A DNA stretch of 64,000 bases, from contig CBDBCY010000004.1 of NCBI GenBank assembly GCA_965203555.1, forward strand, positions 2,272,001 to 2,336,000. The letters are read 5' to 3'. Made by a program: the position numbers and the translations under genes. Of the stretch, positions 54,270-63,630 are shown in pieces. The notes below the pieces were generated by a model. That model searched no databases, had not been told where the DNA came from, and saw nothing but the letters and a program-made list of their open reading frames with translations. This DNA comes from Acidimicrobiia bacterium (GTDB lineage: Bacteria > Actinomycetota > Acidimicrobiia > Spongiisociales > ZC4RG35). Within the stretch, counting starts at the first letter, position 1. Every line of letters starts with the position of its first letter.

Positions 54270-54436
54270 TTGAGAGGATTCCTAGCTAGTGATAAGTCTG
54301 TCAAGTAACGGAATAGGTCGGGATCTGGCCTCGCATAGGCTAAACGCCTGCGTGGTGCTGCGTGGAGGCCGGCCGTTTGACCTACTCGACCAAATGGCAG
54401 ACATACCACCGGAAACATAGGGGAGGATTGCTCCAA

Positions 54437-56459
54437 ATGCTCCGCTTGGCCGAAGAACTGCTGCTGTTGCTCTTGGACGACCGGACCGGTGACTTTTCCA
54501 ACCTGCCCGACCGGACCTTGGGCTACGCACTGGCCGGGGTGGCGCTGATGGATCTGGCCCTGGAGGGCCGGATCGACACGGACACCGACTCGCTCACCCT
54601 GACCGACCCGACGCCGGTGGGCGACGACCTGCTGGACCCCATCCTGGCCGATATCGCCGAGGAACTCAACGCCCGGCCCGACGCGCTCCCGACCGTCTTC
54701 TGGATCAGACGCATCGCGGAACGGGCGCACGAACTGCGGGACAACGCCCTGGCGCGACTGGCGGACAGGGGCATCCTGGACGCCGACGACGGGCTGACGA
54801 TGTTTGCCCTCTCCCGCCTGACGGCGCGCGCCAGGCGGTACCCCCGGGCGGAGGGGGAGTCAGAACGGGAAATTCATGCCCGAGTTATGGGCGTCCTGTT
54901 CGGCAGCGACATACCGTCGCCGGAGGACGCCATGATCGTCGGGCTGGCTCATGCGTGCGGCGCCTTCCGGCAGATGCTGACCACAGCGGAGTATGAGGAA
55001 GTGGAGGGCCGAATAGAGCTTGTCGCCAGGCTGGACCTGATCGGGCAGTCGGTGACGGGCGCCATCCGCAACCTGAGCCTGGCGGAGTCCCATACCCTGA
55101 CCCGGGTCATCCGGGACCAGGGCGGCGGCTGGCCGCGGGCCTCCGGGGGACTGCCCTTGGTCGGCCACGCTCTCCGGCTGAGCGGCGACCTCCGCGCCTT
55201 CTTCACCGAGCAGTATCTCCGACACGGCCCGGTGTTCGAGGTCAGCGCCTTCGGAAGAAAAATGGTGGTGCTGGCGGGGCAAGAAGCCAATTTATTCATG
55301 AGACGGGAGGGAAAGTCCCATCTGCGAAACCGGGAGCTTTTCGCCGGGTTCTCCCATGAAGTGGGTGCGGCCAACGTCGTGACGGGCATGGACGGAGCGG
55401 ACCATCGCCGCCTGCGCCAGACCATGCGCTCCGGCTACTCCCGGGCCCACTATCTGCGGAAGATGTCCGACGCCGTCGCTGTCGTGGAGCGCGAGCTGTC
55501 ACAGTTACCGTTGCAACGGCCCATAGCCGGTTATCACACCATGCAGCGCATCATGACCGAGCAGATAAGCGTGGTTTCGGCCGGCACCTCCTCCGACGGC
55601 TACCTGGAGGACGCCGTCACTTTCATCGAAATGCTGGAGTTGGTTCATCTGGCTCAGCGGCGCCCGAAGTTCATGCTGCGGACTCCGCGGTTCAGACGGG
55701 CGCGGCAGCGCTTGGAAGAGCTCTTCGAGAAGGTACTGGCGTCCCACGAGCCAGAGTTGCGGGAAGGCGCCCAGCGGGACCTGGTGGACGACCTGCTGGA
55801 ACTCCGTCGTTCCTCTCCCGACTTCATGCCGGACACGGACCTGTTCATCAACGTGATGGGACCCTTTCTGGTTGGCGTAGACACGGTGTCCGGCTCCGTC
55901 TCATTCATGCTCTACGCCCTGCTGAAGCACCCCAGCCTGCTGGAGCGGGTGCGGGCCGAGGCCGACGGGCTGTTCGCCGGCGCCGGGCCGGACCCGGAGA
56001 AGCTCCGCGGGATGACGGTAACCCAGGGGGTCATCCTGGAAACCCTGCGAATGTATCCCATAGTGCCGGCCCTGAAGCGCACCGTGACCAACTCCTTCGA
56101 CTTCGCGGGGTACCGGATCCCCGCCGGGACCCAAGTGCTCATGGCAGTGGCCGTCCCGCACTACCTGCCGGAGTTCTTTTCCGACCCGCAGCGCTTTGAC
56201 ATTGACCGCTATTCGCCCGAGCGCCGGGAAAACATCCGGCCTGGAGCTTTCGCTCCCTTCGGGCTGGGCCACCACAGTTGCCTGGGACAGGGTTTCGCCC
56301 AGGCGCAGATGCTCCTCACAATCGCCACCATGCTGCACCGGGCGGAAATAGCGTTGGATCCGCCGGATTACCGGCTGAAGATCAGCCATGCGCCGGTGCC
56401 CAGCCCGGACCGCAATTTCAGGTTCCGGCTACTGCGAAGACGACGGGGGGGGGGGGTGA
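54437..56459 (+). CDS. GPP34/GOLPH3-domain - cytochrome P450 fusion
   Basis: ATG 54437 after GGGAGG. N-terminal LAEELLLLLLD..LAGVALMDLALEGRI..PTPVGDDLLD (GPP34-like). P450 motifs VGVDT, ETLR, FDIDRY, FGLGHHSCLG. The natural stop is probably TGA 56457-59, reached if the G12 run were G11; as given the ORF reads to 57037. Confidence 0.82.
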
Positions 56460-57710
56460 TTGAGCGCCATATCCACTCCGAACGCCAGGTCGCAGCGTCT
56501 CTACGACCTGGACGCCCTGCGGGCCGTGGCCATGTTCCTGGGCGTGGTACTGCACGGCTCCATCTTCGTGCTGCCTGCCCCCCAGCACCTGTGGCCGATT
56601 CACGACCCGGCCGCCACCGGCGACCCGACCTACAAGGTGGTCATCGACTTCATCCACGGCTTCAGAATGCCGGTGTTCTTCCTGCTCAGCGGCTTCTTCA
56701 GCGCCCTGCTCTGGCAACGGCGCGGCCTGCGCGCCCTGGCGGTACAGCGCCTGAAGCGCGTCGGGATTCCCTTCATCGTATCCTGCCTCACCATCCTCCC
56801 CCTCAGCGTTTGGCTGCTCCAGCTCATCGCCGGCCGGGTGGAGCCCTACGACTTCCCGCCGTGGGCGCTGCCCCTGATCTGGCTGTTCGGCACCCTGGGG
56901 CATCTCTGGTTCCTGTGGTACCTGCTGCTGCTGATGGGCTGCTTCCTAGCGGCGGCGCGGGCCGGACTTCAGTTCCTGCATCCCGCTTGGTGGCTTATGA
57001 TACCCCTCTCCCTGGGGACTTCGCTCCTGATGGTTGATCCGGTCTACGGGCCGGACACCGCCGTAACCATCGTCCCGAGGCCGGCCCTGTTTTTCCACTA
57101 CGCCTGCTTCTTCGTATTGGGGGCCTTCTTTTACCGGCGCGGCATGACCGTCCGCCGCCGGTGGGCCGCGGCCCTGCCGCCTGCCGCACTAACCTTCTGG
57201 GCCGGCTATTACCTGCTGGAAAAATACCTGGCGCCCTTTGGCGGGGACAGTGCCGAGGCCGGGACGGCTTTCCTGTTCAGGAACAACCTGACCCTCTTCG
57301 CCGCGCTGCTGGAGGCCGCTTTCGCCTGGCTGATGTGTTTCGGGCTGATGGGGCTTTTCCGCTGGGCGGCGTCCAGGGAAAGTTTTGCCGTGCGCTATCT
57401 TTCCGATGCGTCCTATTGGATGTACCTGATTCATCTGCCGCTGGTGGTCATCGCCCAGCACCTGGTGTTGAATCTGCCCATCCACTACCACCTGAAGTTC
57501 CTGCTGGTGGTGGCCGGGGCCAGCGTGGCCCTGCTGGCAACCTATCAACTGGCCGTGCGATACACCATCATTGGCCGGACGCTGAACGGGCCACGGACCC
57601 GCCGCCGGCCCGGCTCGGCAACCCGGGCGGTCCAGCCTCCGCCAGCCAGAGGGCCACGGATGAGAGGGACTCGTGCCGACCAAGTGCCGGCTACACGGAG
57701 GCCTTCGTAG
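56460..57710 (+). CDS. Acyltransferase family 3 (OpgC/MdoC-like) membrane protein
   Basis: RLYDLDALRAVAMFLGVVLH, FRMPVFFLLSGFF, HLWFLWYL, YLSDASYWMYLIHLP. Confidence 0.88.
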   Translation: MSAISTPNARSQRLYDLDALRAVAMFLGVVLHGSIFVLPAPQHLWPIHDPAATGDPTYKVVIDFIHGFRMPVFFLLSGFFSALLWQRRGLRALAVQRLKRVGIPFIVSCLTILPLSVWLLQLIAGRVEPYDFPPWALPLIWLFGTLGHLWFLWYLLLLMGCFLAAARAGLQFLHPAWWLMIPLSLGTSLLMVDPVYGPDTAVTIVPRPALFFHYACFFVLGAFFYRRGMTVRRRWAAALPPAALTFWAGYYLLEKYLAPFGGDSAEAGTAFLFRNNLTLFAALLEAAFAWLMCFGLMGLFRWAASRESFAVRYLSDASYWMYLIHLPLVVIAQHLVLNLPIHYHLKFLLVVAGASVALLATYQLAVRYTIIGRTLNGPRTRRRPGSATRAVQPPPARGPRMRGTRADQVPATRRPS

Positions 57711-57879: not shown

Positions 57880-58198
57880 CGGGGTTGTCCAACCGGTATC
57901 TCACCGTCCCCCGTGATGACGATCATCCCCCCGTGATGACGATGCCCTGGCCGAGTCGGTGGTCGGCCTGTACAAAACCGAACTGATCCGCAACAAAGGA
58001 CCCTGGCGAGACCTCGACCACGTCGAGAATCGCCACCCTCGAAATGCGTGGACTGGTACACCTCCACCGAAGACTCCTCGAACCAATCGGAGACACACCG
58101 ACCCGCCGAAAAGGAGGCCAACCACTACAGTAAACCACCACCAACAACCGGAGAACTACTCACACAAAACACTCTCCGATGAACTCGGGGCGTTCACA
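57880..58198 (+). mobile_element. IS3-family right-end remnant
   Basis: DDALAESVVGLYKTELIRNKGPWRDLDHVE, then frameshifted ..VDWY..HRRLLEPIGD, then IRR-like TCTCCGATGAACTCGGGGCGTTCA; similar to 54105-54269. Left boundary approximate. Confidence 0.75.
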
Positions 58199-58269
58199 CC
58201 CGATCTGTGGATTGAGGCTGAATGACCCAGGATCGCCTTTTACCCAGATTCCGCGGGACGGGATCGCTT

Positions 58270-58704
58270 CTAATCTGGGCAGGCTCTTCTGTCGAGTACT
58301 GCGGCTTGTATCTCGTCCGCTATCGAATCCAGGTTCTGGTGTTCCCAGAATCTCAGAACCCGCCAACCGCCTTCGGTCAGCTGCTGGGTATGAAAACGAT
58401 CCCGCTCGACATTGGATTGGAGTTTGGCCGCCCACCACTCTCGGTTGGTCTTGGGCGAAGAGCGATGGTCAGGACAGGAGTGCCAGAAGCACCCGTCCAG
58501 GTAGACAGCGATCCGGAGGCGAGGAAAAGCTATGTCCGGTTTGGAGCGGGTGAGATGGGGGATGGGGAAGTTCACCCGATATCGCAGTCCCCGAGCGTGG
58601 AGGATACGACGTACTTTCAGTTCCAGCGGTGTGTCGGATCTCGGGGTGTTCTTCATACGTCGGCGGACCGCAGCCGAGACGGCGGATGGAGTTCGGGAGG
58701 ACAC
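58270..58704 (-). CDS. vsr: Very short patch repair endonuclease
   Basis: RRRM..DTPLELKVRRILHARGLRYR, KPDIAF, YLDGCFWHSCPDH, NVERD, GWRVLRFWEH. GTG 58704 just after the MTase stop. Confidence 0.92.
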   Translation of the reverse strand: MSSRTPSAVSAAVRRRMKNTPRSDTPLELKVRRILHARGLRYRVNFPIPHLTRSKPDIAFPRLRIAVYLDGCFWHSCPDHRSSPKTNREWWAAKLQSNVERDRFHTQQLTEGGWRVLRFWEHQNLDSIADEIQAAVLDRRACPD

Positions 58705-58708
58705 CTGG

Positions 58709-60055
58709 CTATCGGGGCCGGTCAGCCGCCAGCAACGACAAGGCGGCGGCATAGCCGAGGGGCATGGGAACCGCGTTGCCTATCCACTGAGCGACCCTGG
58801 TGCGAGAAGGGGGCTTTCGAGAATTGGTGACAAAGCAGTAGGTGTTCGGAAACCCCTGGATGCGGGCCCCTTCCCGGAGGGTCAGAGTTCGGCGTCGGGT
58901 CGGATGCACGTATCTCCCTCTGCCCGGTGACAGGAACCCAGTAGTGAGAGTGGGGGCGGGATGTTCTTCCCGCATCCTTCCATACACCGACCGGTAGCTG
59001 GTTCCGTTTCTGTGGCTGGGAGGACGTTCGGGGGGCGGCAGTTCGTAGCGGTCGTTGTCGAACAGCCAGTCAATCCGGGAGCGGTTCTCGTCGCTGAGTT
59101 CGGCAGGCTGGTCCAAGAAATGCGGGCCGGTCGCATCCTGAAGGTCTTTGATCGCCCACATGAGTGACCGTGGTCGGTCCTCGGCCAACATCTCGGCGAT
59201 GATGCCCAGAGGGATCGGCTGTTCATTCCGATGAGCCACCATGAAAAAACGCTGGCGGGTCTGTGGCCATCCCATGGCGTCGGCGGCCAGAATGCCGGAC
59301 TCCACCCGGTAGCCGGCCGATTCGAAGAGGGCGCGGGCGGTTTCCACCACCTGGGAACGGTCCCGTACCACTGCCGGGACGTTCTCGATGATTGCCATGC
59401 GGGCGTCGACGGCGGCAGTGAATGCGGGAACCGTCATATAGAGCTCGTTGCGCTTGTCTGTGCGGCGGGTGTGATTGTTGAGATTGGAATGACCCTGGCA
59501 AGGAGGACCGGCCATAATCAGGTCGATGCTTGCCAGCCTTTCGTTGATGTCCGGGTTTACGATTTCCGGTTCATAGACGAACGATGCCCTTTTGGCCCAC
59601 TCCTCTACTCTAAAGTCGATCAGGGCGGTCACCGACTCGGTGGATCGAAACCGGGTGCTGTGGTTTGCGGCGTAGACATCGGCGGCCTCTTCGTCCAGAT
59701 CGCAAATCAGCTCCGACACTAGAGCCGATCCCATCTCCGCTGCCAGTTGTTTGACACCCAGAGCCAGCCCTCCGATCCCGCAAAAGAGATCGACGGCACG
59801 AAGGACCCCCCGGCTGGGATTACGCGGTCGGGGCCTCGTTCCCTCTAGATAGGACCTCCACCAGTCACCCTTCGCATTGACGGTTTCGCTTGTTCCCCCT
59901 GGGAGGGATGCGCCGGAGAGGTCGATCCGCGACTCTATGTCCAGCACCCCCGTTCGCAGGGTGTGGATCAGTTCTCGGTCCCTCCGTACATAGGACTCCG
60001 GCTGGAAGCTACTTGCGGTGTCCTTGAAAACCGGGTCCGGCTGGTGCAGCGTCAT
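58709..60055 (-). CDS. DNA (cytosine-5)-methyltransferase
   Basis: Motif I DLFCGIGG, IV GPPCQGHS, VI IENV, VIII PQTRQRFF, IX LTLREGARIQGFP, X IGNAVP. ATG 60055 overlaps the upstream stop. Confidence 0.92.
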   Translation of the reverse strand: MTLHQPDPVFKDTASSFQPESYVRRDRELIHTLRTGVLDIESRIDLSGASLPGGTSETVNAKGDWWRSYLEGTRPRPRNPSRGVLRAVDLFCGIGGLALGVKQLAAEMGSALVSELICDLDEEAADVYAANHSTRFRSTESVTALIDFRVEEWAKRASFVYEPEIVNPDINERLASIDLIMAGPPCQGHSNLNNHTRRTDKRNELYMTVPAFTAAVDARMAIIENVPAVVRDRSQVVETARALFESAGYRVESGILAADAMGWPQTRQRFFMVAHRNEQPIPLGIIAEMLAEDRPRSLMWAIKDLQDATGPHFLDQPAELSDENRSRIDWLFDNDRYELPPPERPPSHRNGTSYRSVYGRMREEHPAPTLTTGFLSPGRGRYVHPTRRRTLTLREGARIQGFPNTYCFVTNSRKPPSRTRVAQWIGNAVPMPLGYAAALSLLAADRPR

Positions 60056-60765
60056 GTGGAGGGCTTCGTTTCGCCGGTTACTTCCCGGCGGAGTTCCCAT
60101 ATCAAATCGTGCGCCTCGTCCTCGGTGTATTGGTTTAGCAGGACGTTGGTCCAGGTCCGATTGAGGGCTCTGGCCAGAGCGCGTACGTCGCTGGTCAGCA
60201 TTCGATGATCGCATTGCATCTTCACCAGGGCACGGGTTACTGCCGGAACCGTGCCGGTTCTGGTTCTCAGTATGTGGCTTCGCCAGAAATCGGTGGATTG
60301 GGGGACGGCGCCGGCAAGGTGGGCGTGCTCCAAGCCACCCAAAGCGGCTACTCGCAAGTACATTCGGGTGAGAACGCACTCGGTGGAGTTTCTGCCGTTG
60401 ATGTACTTCATGTGGTTCCCTCTTTCGAAGGCTCCCTGCTCTCTCCAGGATATGAAATTCCAGAAGAACCGCAGACTGAGGTATCTCCAGAAACTCGGAT
60501 CATCCAGTATCGCTACCGGCACATCTTGCAGGGACTCGAAGAGGATTGGCGAAAGTTTGCCTTCAACCAGATCGCGATCCTTTTTCTCGGTGTGCCCGAC
60601 CCATTCCTGGTGAAATCGCCGTGACGCAGCACTGATTCTTTCCATATCGATGTCCTCTCCCGTTCCGAGCCATTTCGCCATGATGTCCACGGCCGGGGTG
60701 TGGCCGGCCAGCATTTCCTCGGCCGTCTCCCGACAGTCGGAGAGAGTCAATGTCGGATATCTCAT
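60052..60765 (-). CDS. Hypothetical protein, DUF6339-like
   Basis: 237 aa; DPSFWRYLS..ISWR..RN..LTRMYLR..RALARALNR pattern resembles DUF6339 as recalled; not search-confirmed. Confidence 0.55.
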   Translation of the reverse strand: MRYPTLTLSDCRETAEEMLAGHTPAVDIMAKWLGTGEDIDMERISAASRRFHQEWVGHTEKKDRDLVEGKLSPILFESLQDVPVAILDDPSFWRYLSLRFFWNFISWREQGAFERGNHMKYINGRNSTECVLTRMYLRVAALGGLEHAHLAGAVPQSTDFWRSHILRTRTGTVPAVTRALVKMQCDHRMLTSDVRALARALNRTWTNVLLNQYTEDEAHDLIWELRREVTGETKPST

Positions 60766-61751
60766 GATGTTCCTTCCCGCAAGGTGGACAAGAACTGTTT
60801 GCGGATGCCGATCTCCGCTTCGGCCATGGCTATCAGTTTTTGTGGATCGTCCGTCACCAGTCGCATGAGATGCTCCTGCTCCGACGGAGTGGTGGGCTTG
60901 GCGATCAGGCGAAGCACTCGCCCCAGGAGCGTCCCCTCCAGGTCGCTCCAGGTCTTGTCGCTGTCAGGTTCGGACCGGGAGGCCGAGGCATGGATGACGG
61001 CGGTTAAGAAATCACATGCCAGTTGGAACTGAACGGCGGCGCCGGCGGAGGATTTCTTGTGAATATTCAGCAGGTCGAGCAGGTCCTTGTCCACAAAGAA
61101 CCTGGGAGGATCCTGATCTTCGTAAGATTCCAGGGGATTGTGGCCTTCCATGTGGAGGTAACGCATGGTTCCGGGCGGAAGTTTGTGCTCTTTGCGGTCT
61201 TCTGGGGTGAGCGGTTCTGGCCTGAAGAGGCGATGGGACAGTTTGGTGGTTATGCGAAAGATGGCGCGGGCCAGCCAAGTGCCCTTGCGCCAAGGTTGGA
61301 GAGGTTGCGCGCCTATCGTCCGGTTCAGCAACAGATAGGTGGTGACCACTGCGCCGTTCACACCAGCGGTCAGAGCCCGCGGTCGGGGCGGCCGGTGCAG
61401 GTTCACGGTTGCAGGCAGGGAATCCAGATCTGAAAGTGGGCGATCGAAGACTACGTCACTGATCTTCAAGTAGGGACTGTTGATTGTGACTAGGAGAGAA
61501 AGAGCGGAGAGGTCAAGTCCGGCCTGGGAGACTCCTCCAGTCAAGTCTGCCCGGAATTGGTCCAGGGACTTTTCCTCGCTTCCCCAGTGGAGAACCGCTG
61601 TCTGTTGACCGAACCAGAGGGAGTCTTCCTGAAAAGTTATGCTGGATCCCGCTCGGCAGGTGTGTTCGCCAAACCCGACGGTGACATGGTCCAGTATCTG
61701 ACCGAGATCGATGCCCTCGAAAGGGCGGATCTCCCGTATTTCTCGATTCAA
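60762..61751 (-). CDS. Hypothetical protein (329 aa) in the methyltransferase operon
   Basis: Start and stop both overlap neighbouring genes (TTGA, ATGA); no motif recognised. Confidence 0.7.
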   Translation of the reverse strand: MNREIREIRPFEGIDLGQILDHVTVGFGEHTCRAGSSITFQEDSLWFGQQTAVLHWGSEEKSLDQFRADLTGGVSQAGLDLSALSLLVTINSPYLKISDVVFDRPLSDLDSLPATVNLHRPPRPRALTAGVNGAVVTTYLLLNRTIGAQPLQPWRKGTWLARAIFRITTKLSHRLFRPEPLTPEDRKEHKLPPGTMRYLHMEGHNPLESYEDQDPPRFFVDKDLLDLLNIHKKSSAGAAVQFQLACDFLTAVIHASASRSEPDSDKTWSDLEGTLLGRVLRLIAKPTTPSEQEHLMRLVTDDPQKLIAMAEAEIGIRKQFLSTLREGTS

Positions 61752-63630
61752 GAGGAGCTGCCTTCGACGATTTCCGCCTCAGCGTACAGCCGACCCGACC
61801 ACTCGGACCGATAAGCATCGGTGGTGTATTCGAAAACCCCTCGCTCGTGCTTAACCAGCTCTCCGAGGAAAACTCCTGGTCTCTTCCGATCCTCCACGAA
61901 TCCCGGATGCGGCGTTATTGAAGTTTCAACGGCTTCTCCGGGCTTCCCGTCCTCTAGGAATCTGTAGCGAATCGATACCGCTACCTTCGCCTTCTCCTCT
62001 TGGCAGTGTTCGCTGAGAGAGACTTTCACTGTCCCCTGCAGTGAAATGGCGCCTCCATCCGCCTCCTGCAATCTGTGGTCGAGATTGATGGTGACCGGTC
62101 GAGGCGGAGGCGGGGGAGGAGGAGGTGGCCCGGTCTTGTGGCCTGCCATCAATCTCCTCATGATCCTGTCGAAATGGGGAAGTTCAATGTGCTCGGAAGG
62201 GCGTTCAGGTGGTTGGAGCTGTTTGCGAAAGTTACGGAGGCGCCTTTTGATACCTTGCTTTATTTTTCGGGCCAGTTGGTAGGCTTCAGGGGGGACGGAG
62301 GAATCTCCCTCAGCCTTGGTCTGCCACAGATCGTGGGCGCTGGGCTCGGTGCCGCTGAGCAGCTCATCAACCTGATCGTGGGCTACAAAGGCACCGCGGG
62401 CGAAAGGGGCTGTTTGCCTCACCGACAGATACTCAACCACCATCCGCGGCTTTCGCATCAAAGCTATGATGCTTCGGTGCTCAATGGAGGGGTCATCTCC
62501 AGGGCCGGGAAAGGACCAGCCGTCGGGATCGGATACCAAACCCAGGATGCCTGCCTCGGAACCAGTTCTTATTGGATGTCTCCTGCCCATGCTAGGTACG
62601 GCGGTGGCGCCCGTGGCGATTTCATATGCGCCGATAAAGGTGTTCAAGTCAGGGTCTTTACGGGGACGGGGATAGAGACGTTTCCCATCTTCGGTGCGAA
62701 CGTAGGCGTTGAACCTGAGAGAGTGATCGGCGAGGGCTGGCCACCAATATCGTTCAATGGCTCTGACGAGGTCGATTGCGCATACTCTCGGCTCAACGAG
62801 CAGAAAGCTGGTTCCGGTACCTCTTTCCCGCGTTCCCGAAGGGGAGCGGATTGTCATTCCGAGAGACTTGGCTATCTGGTCGGCCTCGCGGTTAACGAAG
62901 GGTTCCGCATAGCCTGAATCCCCTACTCTTCCGAGACGGGCGAAGCCGGTGTAGCTCTGACTGTTCTTTTCATGCCGGGCCCAGTAGGTCATGCCGAGCA
63001 GGCGTCTGGTCACCCCGGGGTCGTCGGGCCGTTCCTTGAAGCAGGTGTAGGCCACCACCGTCCTGATAGCCGAGCTCTGGATCATCCCGGCCTTGCCGTA
63101 GCCGAAGGTCCCGCCCGATCCCCCACTCTTCTTGGTGTATCCCACGCTCACCATGCCCAGCCACAACTTAGAGCGGTCGTGCTGCCACGGTCCGTACATG
63201 CCTGTACTTCCCTTTTCCTCTATTAGCAGATAGGGAAGTACAGCTTTCGTGTCAGCCAGTCGATCGAGACAGGTCTTCTCCGCCAGCCCCACGGTTTTGG
63301 GTTCCATTCCGCGCAGATGCTCGGACAGTTCGGCCAACCCGAGGTTCTCTGTCAGGGAACGGCGTTCCCGGCCCTCAGCCCTCCTGAAAGAAAACCCTAT
63401 CTGGAAGTCGGGGGGGGGGCTTGGATGCCATCGCGCAGTTCGAGCGCCGCGTCCCAAGCGTTCTGAACGACTTCTCTGGCCAGGTAGACAGCTTGGAGCG
63501 GGGGAGGATTGACTGCCAAGACTCCGGGTGTATCAACCGGCTCATTTCGGAAGAGCTTGGATAGATCTCCGGAAACACCACTACGGTTGGGATCGGGCGT
63601 TTCCCAGGTCCAGCGGCGCACGATAGGCAA
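61748..63630 (-). CDS. GHKL/HATPase-fold ATPase split by a frameshift at a C10 tract (63410-63419)
   Basis: N-box LAREVVQNAWDA is in ORF 63397-63630; G1-like IEEKGSTGM and G2 GGSGGTFGYGKAG are in ORF 61748-63457. C11 or C8 would join them in frame. Confidence 0.75.

Follow-up and report, generated by a model that had tools for sequence, protein, structure and literature searches.

PDC-M33, a catalogued relative of the cassette described here, belongs to the PDC systems of PADLOC, which are predicted candidates; the available text of Payne et al. (bioRxiv 10.1101/2024.01.29.577857) reports no test of them and indicates that PDC-M33 was chosen for its embedding in BREX, DISARM and type I restriction-modification (RM) loci. 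ParaMORC ATPases occupy RM-operon contexts like those of the distant relatives considered below, and MORC and paraMORC operons, in the accessible parts of Iyer et al. 2008 (PMC2292703), join a GHKL ATPase to a C5-cytosine methylase and Vsr. Druantia type II is given as DruM, DruF, DruG and DruE in the portion of PMC8565338 at hand. A G tract in pglX of Streptomyces coelicolor flips phage resistance ON and OFF at 1e-2 to 1e-4 (PMC4365076, in part), and phasevarions driven by homopolymer slippage are known in type I and type III RM (PMC12707154, in part). Here we describe a cassette of five co-oriented minus-strand genes at 58270-63630 of a 64,000-nucleotide stretch (the window, meaning the whole stretch analysed) of an Acidimicrobiia genome. 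The genes encode a probable GHKL-type ATPase (gene A), a protein without a family (gene B), a DUF6339 protein (gene C), a C5-cytosine methylase (gene M) and a very-short-patch repair endonuclease (vsr). Literature searches on PDC-M33, DUF6339 and the combined themes found no paper.

The prominent feature of this cassette is a run of ten cytosines (C10) that splits gene A into two frames. Across the gene A family such runs form a pattern likely to reflect ON/OFF switching by strand slippage, and the assembled allele of this genome would be in the OFF state. A run of 8 or 11 cytosines would restore the frame, and both pieces of the gene align end to end, across the break, with intact homologues of about 620-690 amino acids (aa). 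The earlier note on this DNA, made from the sequence alone, hinted at the break in speaking of a frame-repaired operon and overlooked both C10 as its cause and the runs in the rest of the family. The parts of gene A are as follows.

61748..63630, minus strand: gene A as a whole, in two frames broken at the C10 run
63397..63630, minus strand: 5' piece of gene A, 77 aa with the GHKL N-box AREVVQNAWDA, its frame lost just past the run
63410..63419, minus strand: homopolymer C10 (G10 on the plus strand), in a variable loop after the N-box
61748..63409, minus strand: 3' part of gene A, with the G1/G2 boxes, a middle region, a 9-Pro linker and a beta-rich tail
62102-62128, minus strand: the 9-Pro linker of gene A, codon-interrupted

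An assembly or sequencing error as the cause of the break was considered and set aside, because contigs of two sequencing runs agree on C10 and because runs emerged family-wide. An 11-kb contig of run X1 matches with 0 gaps over the whole region compared, and a contig of run X2, from another sample of the same study, spans C10 with 0 gaps. X1 is possibly the source of the assembly, both runs come from one study, and contigs lose rare variants.

Homologues of gene A numbered 355 among 8,000 scored candidates, and 11 metagenome loci and 78 genome loci (the best 78 of 133 confirmed) were compared; they are not independent, several being near-duplicates or from one record. In the loci other than the window, gene A sequence totalling 164 kb held 18 G/C runs of at least 9 bases, and none occurred in the 227 kb of B, C, M and vsr; the flanks (1,152 kb) held 8, two of which are the G19 of L055, at the end of its contig, and the C18 of L076, in the gene A leader. 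About 1.1 runs would be expected in gene A at the flank rate, and about 25 in B, C, M and vsr at the gene A rate. Runs in gene A homologues lay at about residues 63-81 (C9-C32, and G15 and G19), at about 105-125 (G8-G16) and at about 310-323 (G8-G13). Counted from site and base alone, they had at least four origins, and in a B+C tree of 67 loci they sat on scattered branches with run-free sisters, with C or G at the same loop.

Among the 21 runs of at least 8 bases in gene A, 7 were in frame, one of which (G8 at residue 448 of L078) may be due to chance, and 14 coincided with a frameshift; runs of C17, C24 and C32 occurred within intact, in-frame copies. The Pro/Gly runs of the C-terminal linker, which serve as a control within the gene, were codon-interrupted in all 31 cases, as is the 9-Pro linker of the window, and those of the N-terminal loop were pure in six of eight. 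Gene A thereby resembles simple-sequence-repeat phase-variable genes, having a coding-region run of at least 9 bases that lies in or out of frame among relatives, far above background. It also resembles pglX and phase-variable RM genes in carrying a homopolymer run within a gene of a methylation-linked defence system, here a putative one; theirs lies in the methylase, as far as the available parts of those sources go, whereas here the runs lie in the ATPase gene and never in the methylase, at several sites and as both poly-C and poly-G.

The genome that carries the window has a run-length profile with two humps, typical of contingency loci: runs of 6, 7, 8 and 9 bases number 1571, 161, 10 and 1, and runs of 10-13 bases number 18 against 0.19 extrapolated. 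RM-type genes (type ISP, type IIG, HmaC/DUF499 and gene A) contain or adjoin seven of the 18; two further ones lie beside a type ISP gene, and most others belong to no family. These poly-C/G runs, half of them in or beside RM-type genes, are L096-L108 and those of the window; four lie within a single type ISP gene (L102) or after it, and the type IIG gene (L099) and the HmaC/DUF499 gene (L101) have frameshifts. The window itself holds a second candidate switch, a G12 run at 56445-56456. An open reading frame (ORF) at 54362-57037 fuses a GPP34 domain (E 6e-34) with a cytochrome P450 (E 6e-61), and the run lies where this fusion gene ends and shortly ahead of an acyltransferase-3 start codon; G12 extends the P450 frame by about 200 codons over the next gene, and one base fewer would bring an immediate stop.

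We consider it quite probable that the run in gene A is a selected switch. Convergent switches would imply that gene A is selected for being turned on and off, and therefore that the action of the module is costly and conditional; switch runs would also account for the third of homologues that resemble pseudogenes. The most familiar cases of phase-variable defence genes are those of pathogens and of Streptomyces Pgl; here the phenomenon would concern uncultured marine bacteria. Many of the run-bearing records have names that we take to be those of sponge symbionts.

Gene A is the first member of a recurrent unit, the remaining features of which are listed below.

60762..61751, minus strand: gene B, 329 aa, predicted Ig-like beta-sandwich and helical C-terminal domain, no family
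60052..60765, minus strand: gene C, 237 aa, DUF6339, predicted nearly all-helical
58709..60055, minus strand: gene M, 448 aa, C5-cytosine methyltransferase
58270..58704, minus strand: vsr, very-short-patch repair endonuclease, GTG start at 58704, alternative ATG start at 58752
58000..58200, plus strand: insertion sequence (IS)-like remnant 3' of vsr, with related copies elsewhere in the genome

The arrangement read in the earlier note was confirmed: the five genes are co-oriented, with overlaps of TTGA (A/B), ATGA (B/C) and ATGA (C/M) and a 4-bp gap between the M stop (58709) and the vsr start. To follow the unit in relatives we took 90 loci with A on the plus strand, setting aside the window's own locus, one minus-strand locus and three weak matches. 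Seventy-one loci had at least 3.6 kb downstream of A and were eligible, a shattered double copy (L088) being excluded. Genes A-B-C-M occurred in this order in 59 of the 71, which bears out the proposal that the upstream trio accompanies the methylase elsewhere and supports the view that A-B-C travels as a unit with this methylase clade. The 59 span several phyla, as the taxa are named in the records. The record of the cultured Aeromicrobium halocynthiae (L084) offers an example of a cassette that is in frame and free of runs. Four of the other 12 are truncated (L021, L023, L072, L081); in L005, L008, L010 and L043 the A-B-C trio lacks a methylase of this clade, and a different C5 methylase lies close to it in L005, L008 and L010. 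At the divergent loci L091-L093 and L095 the profile missed B. No other neighbour family occurred in more than 12 loci. In two loci (L038:16742-20620 and L045:14992-18937) a second, divergent A-B-C trio opposes the first, and both converge on a single methylase gene.

The unit is sparsely distributed. Gene A is present in 8 of 401 genomes of the class; the M clade is also present in 8, six of which have A, and the two that lack it are decayed remnants that kept M and vsr and lost A and B, one retaining the end of C. Close gene A was absent from all 16 other genomes of the genus, and no relative of A was found among 233 candidates in viral contigs. The G+C content at third codon positions is 0.65-0.72 in the cassette against 0.78-0.84 in four neighbouring genes. 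Patchy and foreign-looking, the cassette was probably acquired horizontally. Its relatives adjoin Mza-like MORC/Z1/DUF4420, Mokosh, HEC-06/GmrSD-like and DISARM-like genes, a setting in keeping with the defence role proposed earlier. The more distant trios follow Z1-helicase and DUF4420 genes, neighbour DISARM-like genes or, on a haloarchaeal plasmid, adjoin a cytosine methylase.

Sequence comparison places the cassette in a distant sister clade of PDC-M33, not within it, because its A aligns with that of a true member and its B and C do not align significantly. Both systems have three co-oriented genes A-B-C of about 630, 300 and 250 aa (the PDC-M33 models have 627, 289 and about 250 positions). 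The window A piece matches PDLC04582 at E 1.2e-8, and relatives reach 1.3e-14, over the N-terminal part only; hhalign aligned A with that of a true member, L116 from another genome of the genus, at 91% probability over 290 columns. With the models for A, B and C, L116 itself reaches E 2e-52, 5e-15 and 1e-8, respectively. In contrast, B of the window and of six relatives has no match to PDLC04583, and hhalign to true PDC-M33B gave 0.3%. C is a DUF6339 protein in both systems; that of the window reaches E 2e-3 on the PDC-M33C model and 0.6% by hhalign to the true member. The clade of the window differs further in its dedicated, translationally coupled C5 methylase as fourth gene and in its recurrent gene A runs, none of at least 8 bases being present in L116 or L117. 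The description of the system as uncharacterised needs qualifying because A and C are distantly related to that catalogued candidate. Of the three DUF6339 genes in a genome of the same genus (L154, L116), two belong to PDC-M33-like trios arranged in tandem.

Comparison with other systems gave partial likenesses. As in Mza (MzaB-MzaC-MzaD), divergent A relatives come after Z1 helicase and DUF4420 genes (L091-L094, L113, L114, L156); however, window-family A did not align with MzaB-like MORC (probability 0.4%), and, unlike Mza and paraMORC loci, the core of the window clade and the host genome showed no superfamily II/Z1 helicase or PD-(D/E)xK gene. The best PADLOC model for M is DruM2 of Druantia type II (PDLC00033, E 1.7e-84), but the cassette has no match to DruE, DruF or DruG, and the DruE-like helicase of the host is about 650 kb away in another island. 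That separate island (L136, host contig 1674000-1693999) holds the DruE-like helicase, a DpdE/DrmD-like SNF2 helicase, a DrmMI-like methylase, PDC-S19 and PDC-S37. Set against type II RM with a C5 methylase, the cassette has intact methylase motifs, and fold searches with the models of B and C list no nuclease family.

The assignment of A to the GHKL-type ATPases is probable and draws on its motifs, profile support being weak. EVVQNAWDA, GSTGM and GTFGYGK and the poly-Pro linker are present as first read, and E50/N54 and GGxxGxGK are conserved in the family. The Atlas lead for gene A was HATPase_c_3 (0.87), and A gave no alignment with HATPase_c_3 proteins. Atlas neighbours of A also carry HTH_3, and in L112 (8034-11648) a divergent A homologue shares one open frame with sigma-70 and helix-turn-helix domains, possibly as a regulatory fusion or as two adjacent genes.

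M matches the C5 methylase family at E 6e-42, with motifs I, IV (PC), VI (ENV), VIII and X intact. The long N-terminal extension first noticed in this protein amounts to about 85 residues ahead of motif I and is conserved across the family. The vsr product matches Vsr (TIGR00632, E 1e-34). Vsr accompanied 22 of the 54 complete cassettes whose flanks were long enough, in varying place and orientation. It is an optional fifth gene, and the system first described as one of five genes recurs as A-B-C-M. In the window B, C, M and vsr are all intact.

Protein C matches DUF6339 just under the cut-off (E 8e-5), and its relatives carry PF19866. Its predicted fold (predicted local distance difference test, pLDDT, 96.7) is nearly all-helical and had no clear structural match (best Z 6.4 over 59 residues, root-mean-square deviation 3.6; Foldseek E >0.5). 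B was predicted (pLDDT 91.8) as an Ig-like sandwich at about residues 12-173 followed by a helical domain, its best structural match reaching Z 7.3 over 126 residues at a deviation of 4.5. As the earlier note had it, no restriction endonuclease was recognised: Pfam, PDB profiles, Foldseek (against PDB, for C also viral structures) and VIA-align returned no nuclease family for B or C, the helical half of B being barely covered. Such a lack of matches would neither show a new fold nor exclude a nuclease. A complex of B and C is predicted, with a score of 0.87 against 0.01 for the best of three controls, runs agreeing in at least 75% of contacts and partner pLDDT of at least 88. Of solved complexes, 116 of 157 attained the score mark, as did 2 of 215 mismatched pairs; these counts apply only approximately to the alignments used here. 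The predicted interface sets C 207-213 and 87-90 against B 155-159 and 94-98. The conserved residues of C (W93, R94, W107, R108, R134, R138, D159, W161, S163, H164 and R195, including a DFWRSH motif) are absent from it and may therefore face DNA or form an active site.

On this basis, we give slightly better than an even chance to the reading that the cassette is an RM-like defence unit A-B-C-M, with optional Vsr and a reversible ON/OFF run in A. Judging by its intact motifs, M would methylate C5 of a family-specific site and so mark self. Vsr repair of deaminated 5-methylcytosine (5mC) is established for Dcm/Vsr, and here too Vsr would mend the T:G mismatches that arise. A, by its GHKL boxes, would be a DNA clamp of the MutL/MORC type, dimerising on ATP, and B and C would form a complex with the conserved Arg/Trp/DFWRSH residues of C toward DNA. 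A-B-C would then recognise incoming DNA by its unmethylated sites and either block this DNA or cut it, with no nuclease of recognised fold, and poly-C slippage would shut down the A arm in the majority of cells and reactivate it in some. A defence role in itself is fairly likely, and we lean, with less assurance, toward A-B-C carrying out the attack and not assisting methylation. If true, this would be a methylation-linked defence without a recognisable nuclease, with its core A-B-C-M and a predicted B-C interface named. The own methylase and the convergently evolved switch are likely what is new, in the sister clade of PDC-M33, itself an untested candidate. More tentatively, and at somewhat less than even chance, A-B-C-M may be an undescribed restriction class that combines an ATP-driven clamp with a new-fold DUF6339 reader or nuclease, in which bacteria from at least two phyla, marine and mostly associated with sponges, would have evolved ATPase-gene switches repeatedly and independently, within a wider tendency of their genomes to phase-vary defence systems.

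Several observations weigh against a switched RM-like defence unit. No length heterogeneity was found within one population, X1 and X2 both giving C10, and no same-strain pair exists among the run-bearing loci, the closest being about 85% identical. Because the loci are kin, the enrichment statistics overstate significance; several relatives' host genomes carry many long C/G runs genome-wide. Gene A is broken in many relatives by IS insertions, stops or other frameshifts, and with run-caused breaks excluded the broken loci number 10 of 59 for A, 6 of 59 for B, 1 for C and 4 for M, so that A per kb does not exceed B. As to function, the G1 box of gene A has Glu where Asp is usual, a Pfam search of 29 gene A members gave no ATPase match, and the PDB profile of gene A matched only Hsp90/TRAP1, the best being TRAP1 at E 0.058. 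Fold and profile searches of B and C recognised neither a nuclease nor another effector in the cassette apart from Vsr. Finally, since A is first in a translationally coupled operon, the switch may silence the downstream genes, including M.

This last point leads to the strongest rival, a master switch or phasevarion in which the run in the first gene silences the coupled operon by polarity, or in which M needs A-B-C (as in BREX), so that the 5mC pattern flips with or without restriction. All four junctions are overlapping or tight, the C18 run of L076 lies in the leader upstream of A and not inside A, the conserved N-terminal extension of M could dock on C, and the phasevarions described in the available text of PMC12707154 arise by homopolymer slippage in type I and III RM. 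Yet no run of at least 8 bases was found in M (65 loci, 79 kb), although this would be the most direct route to switching methylation; decayed copies have kept M and vsr beyond the loss of A and B, and A-B-C is also found without this M clade (L005, L008, L010, L043). We regard a master switch as unlikely.

A somewhat poorer prospect is that no switch is selected, the runs having grown neutrally in tolerant Pro/Gly loops under weak indel repair, with A a fresh pseudogene in a decaying cassette or the product of sequencing error. The run-rich genomes of some relatives and the many copies of gene A broken by other means fit this explanation, and a 1:2 ratio of in-frame to out-of-frame runs is also expected from random error. 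However, neutral growth does not sit well with the restriction of the runs to A (18, and none in B, C, M and vsr, for which the rate of A predicts about 25), with a Pro-rich linker that is never pure, or with C17, C24 and C32 in intact in-frame genes. Out-of-frame runs stand in chromosome-level as well as apparently short-read records (judged by contig names), X1 and X2 agree on C10, and B, C, M and vsr are intact here. The selected switch is accordingly retained as the preferred explanation of the runs.

It is very improbable that A-B-C, in place of acting as a defence effector, assists repair in the manner of MutL by licensing Vsr at the T:G mismatches stemming from M: MutL, a GHKL ATPase, does cooperate with Vsr in very-short-patch repair of E. 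coli (PMC2292703, in part) and Vsr is the sole nuclease recognised, but Vsr lies near a minority of cassettes without fixed place or orientation, divergent trios accompany Z1 helicase and DUF4420 nuclease genes instead, and a switch on such a helper is less expected.

The surroundings of the cassette add no further component. The suggestion that Z1 or PD-(D/E)xK genes might lie beyond the window found no support, the next upstream ORF looking, as read from the sequence, like an unrelated lipoprotein gene, and no Z1 gene being matched in the 95%-complete host genome. A promoter and terminator scan of the cassette gave a signal no better than chance. Of the IS remnants noted earlier, a short IS-like fragment near 58000-58200 was found again; it has copies 74-87% identical at other places in the genome, and it carries what we take to be an IS3-type motif. 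Just past the window, at window-relative 70701-72781, lies an apparently intact transposase and ATPase pair, presumably IS21-like.

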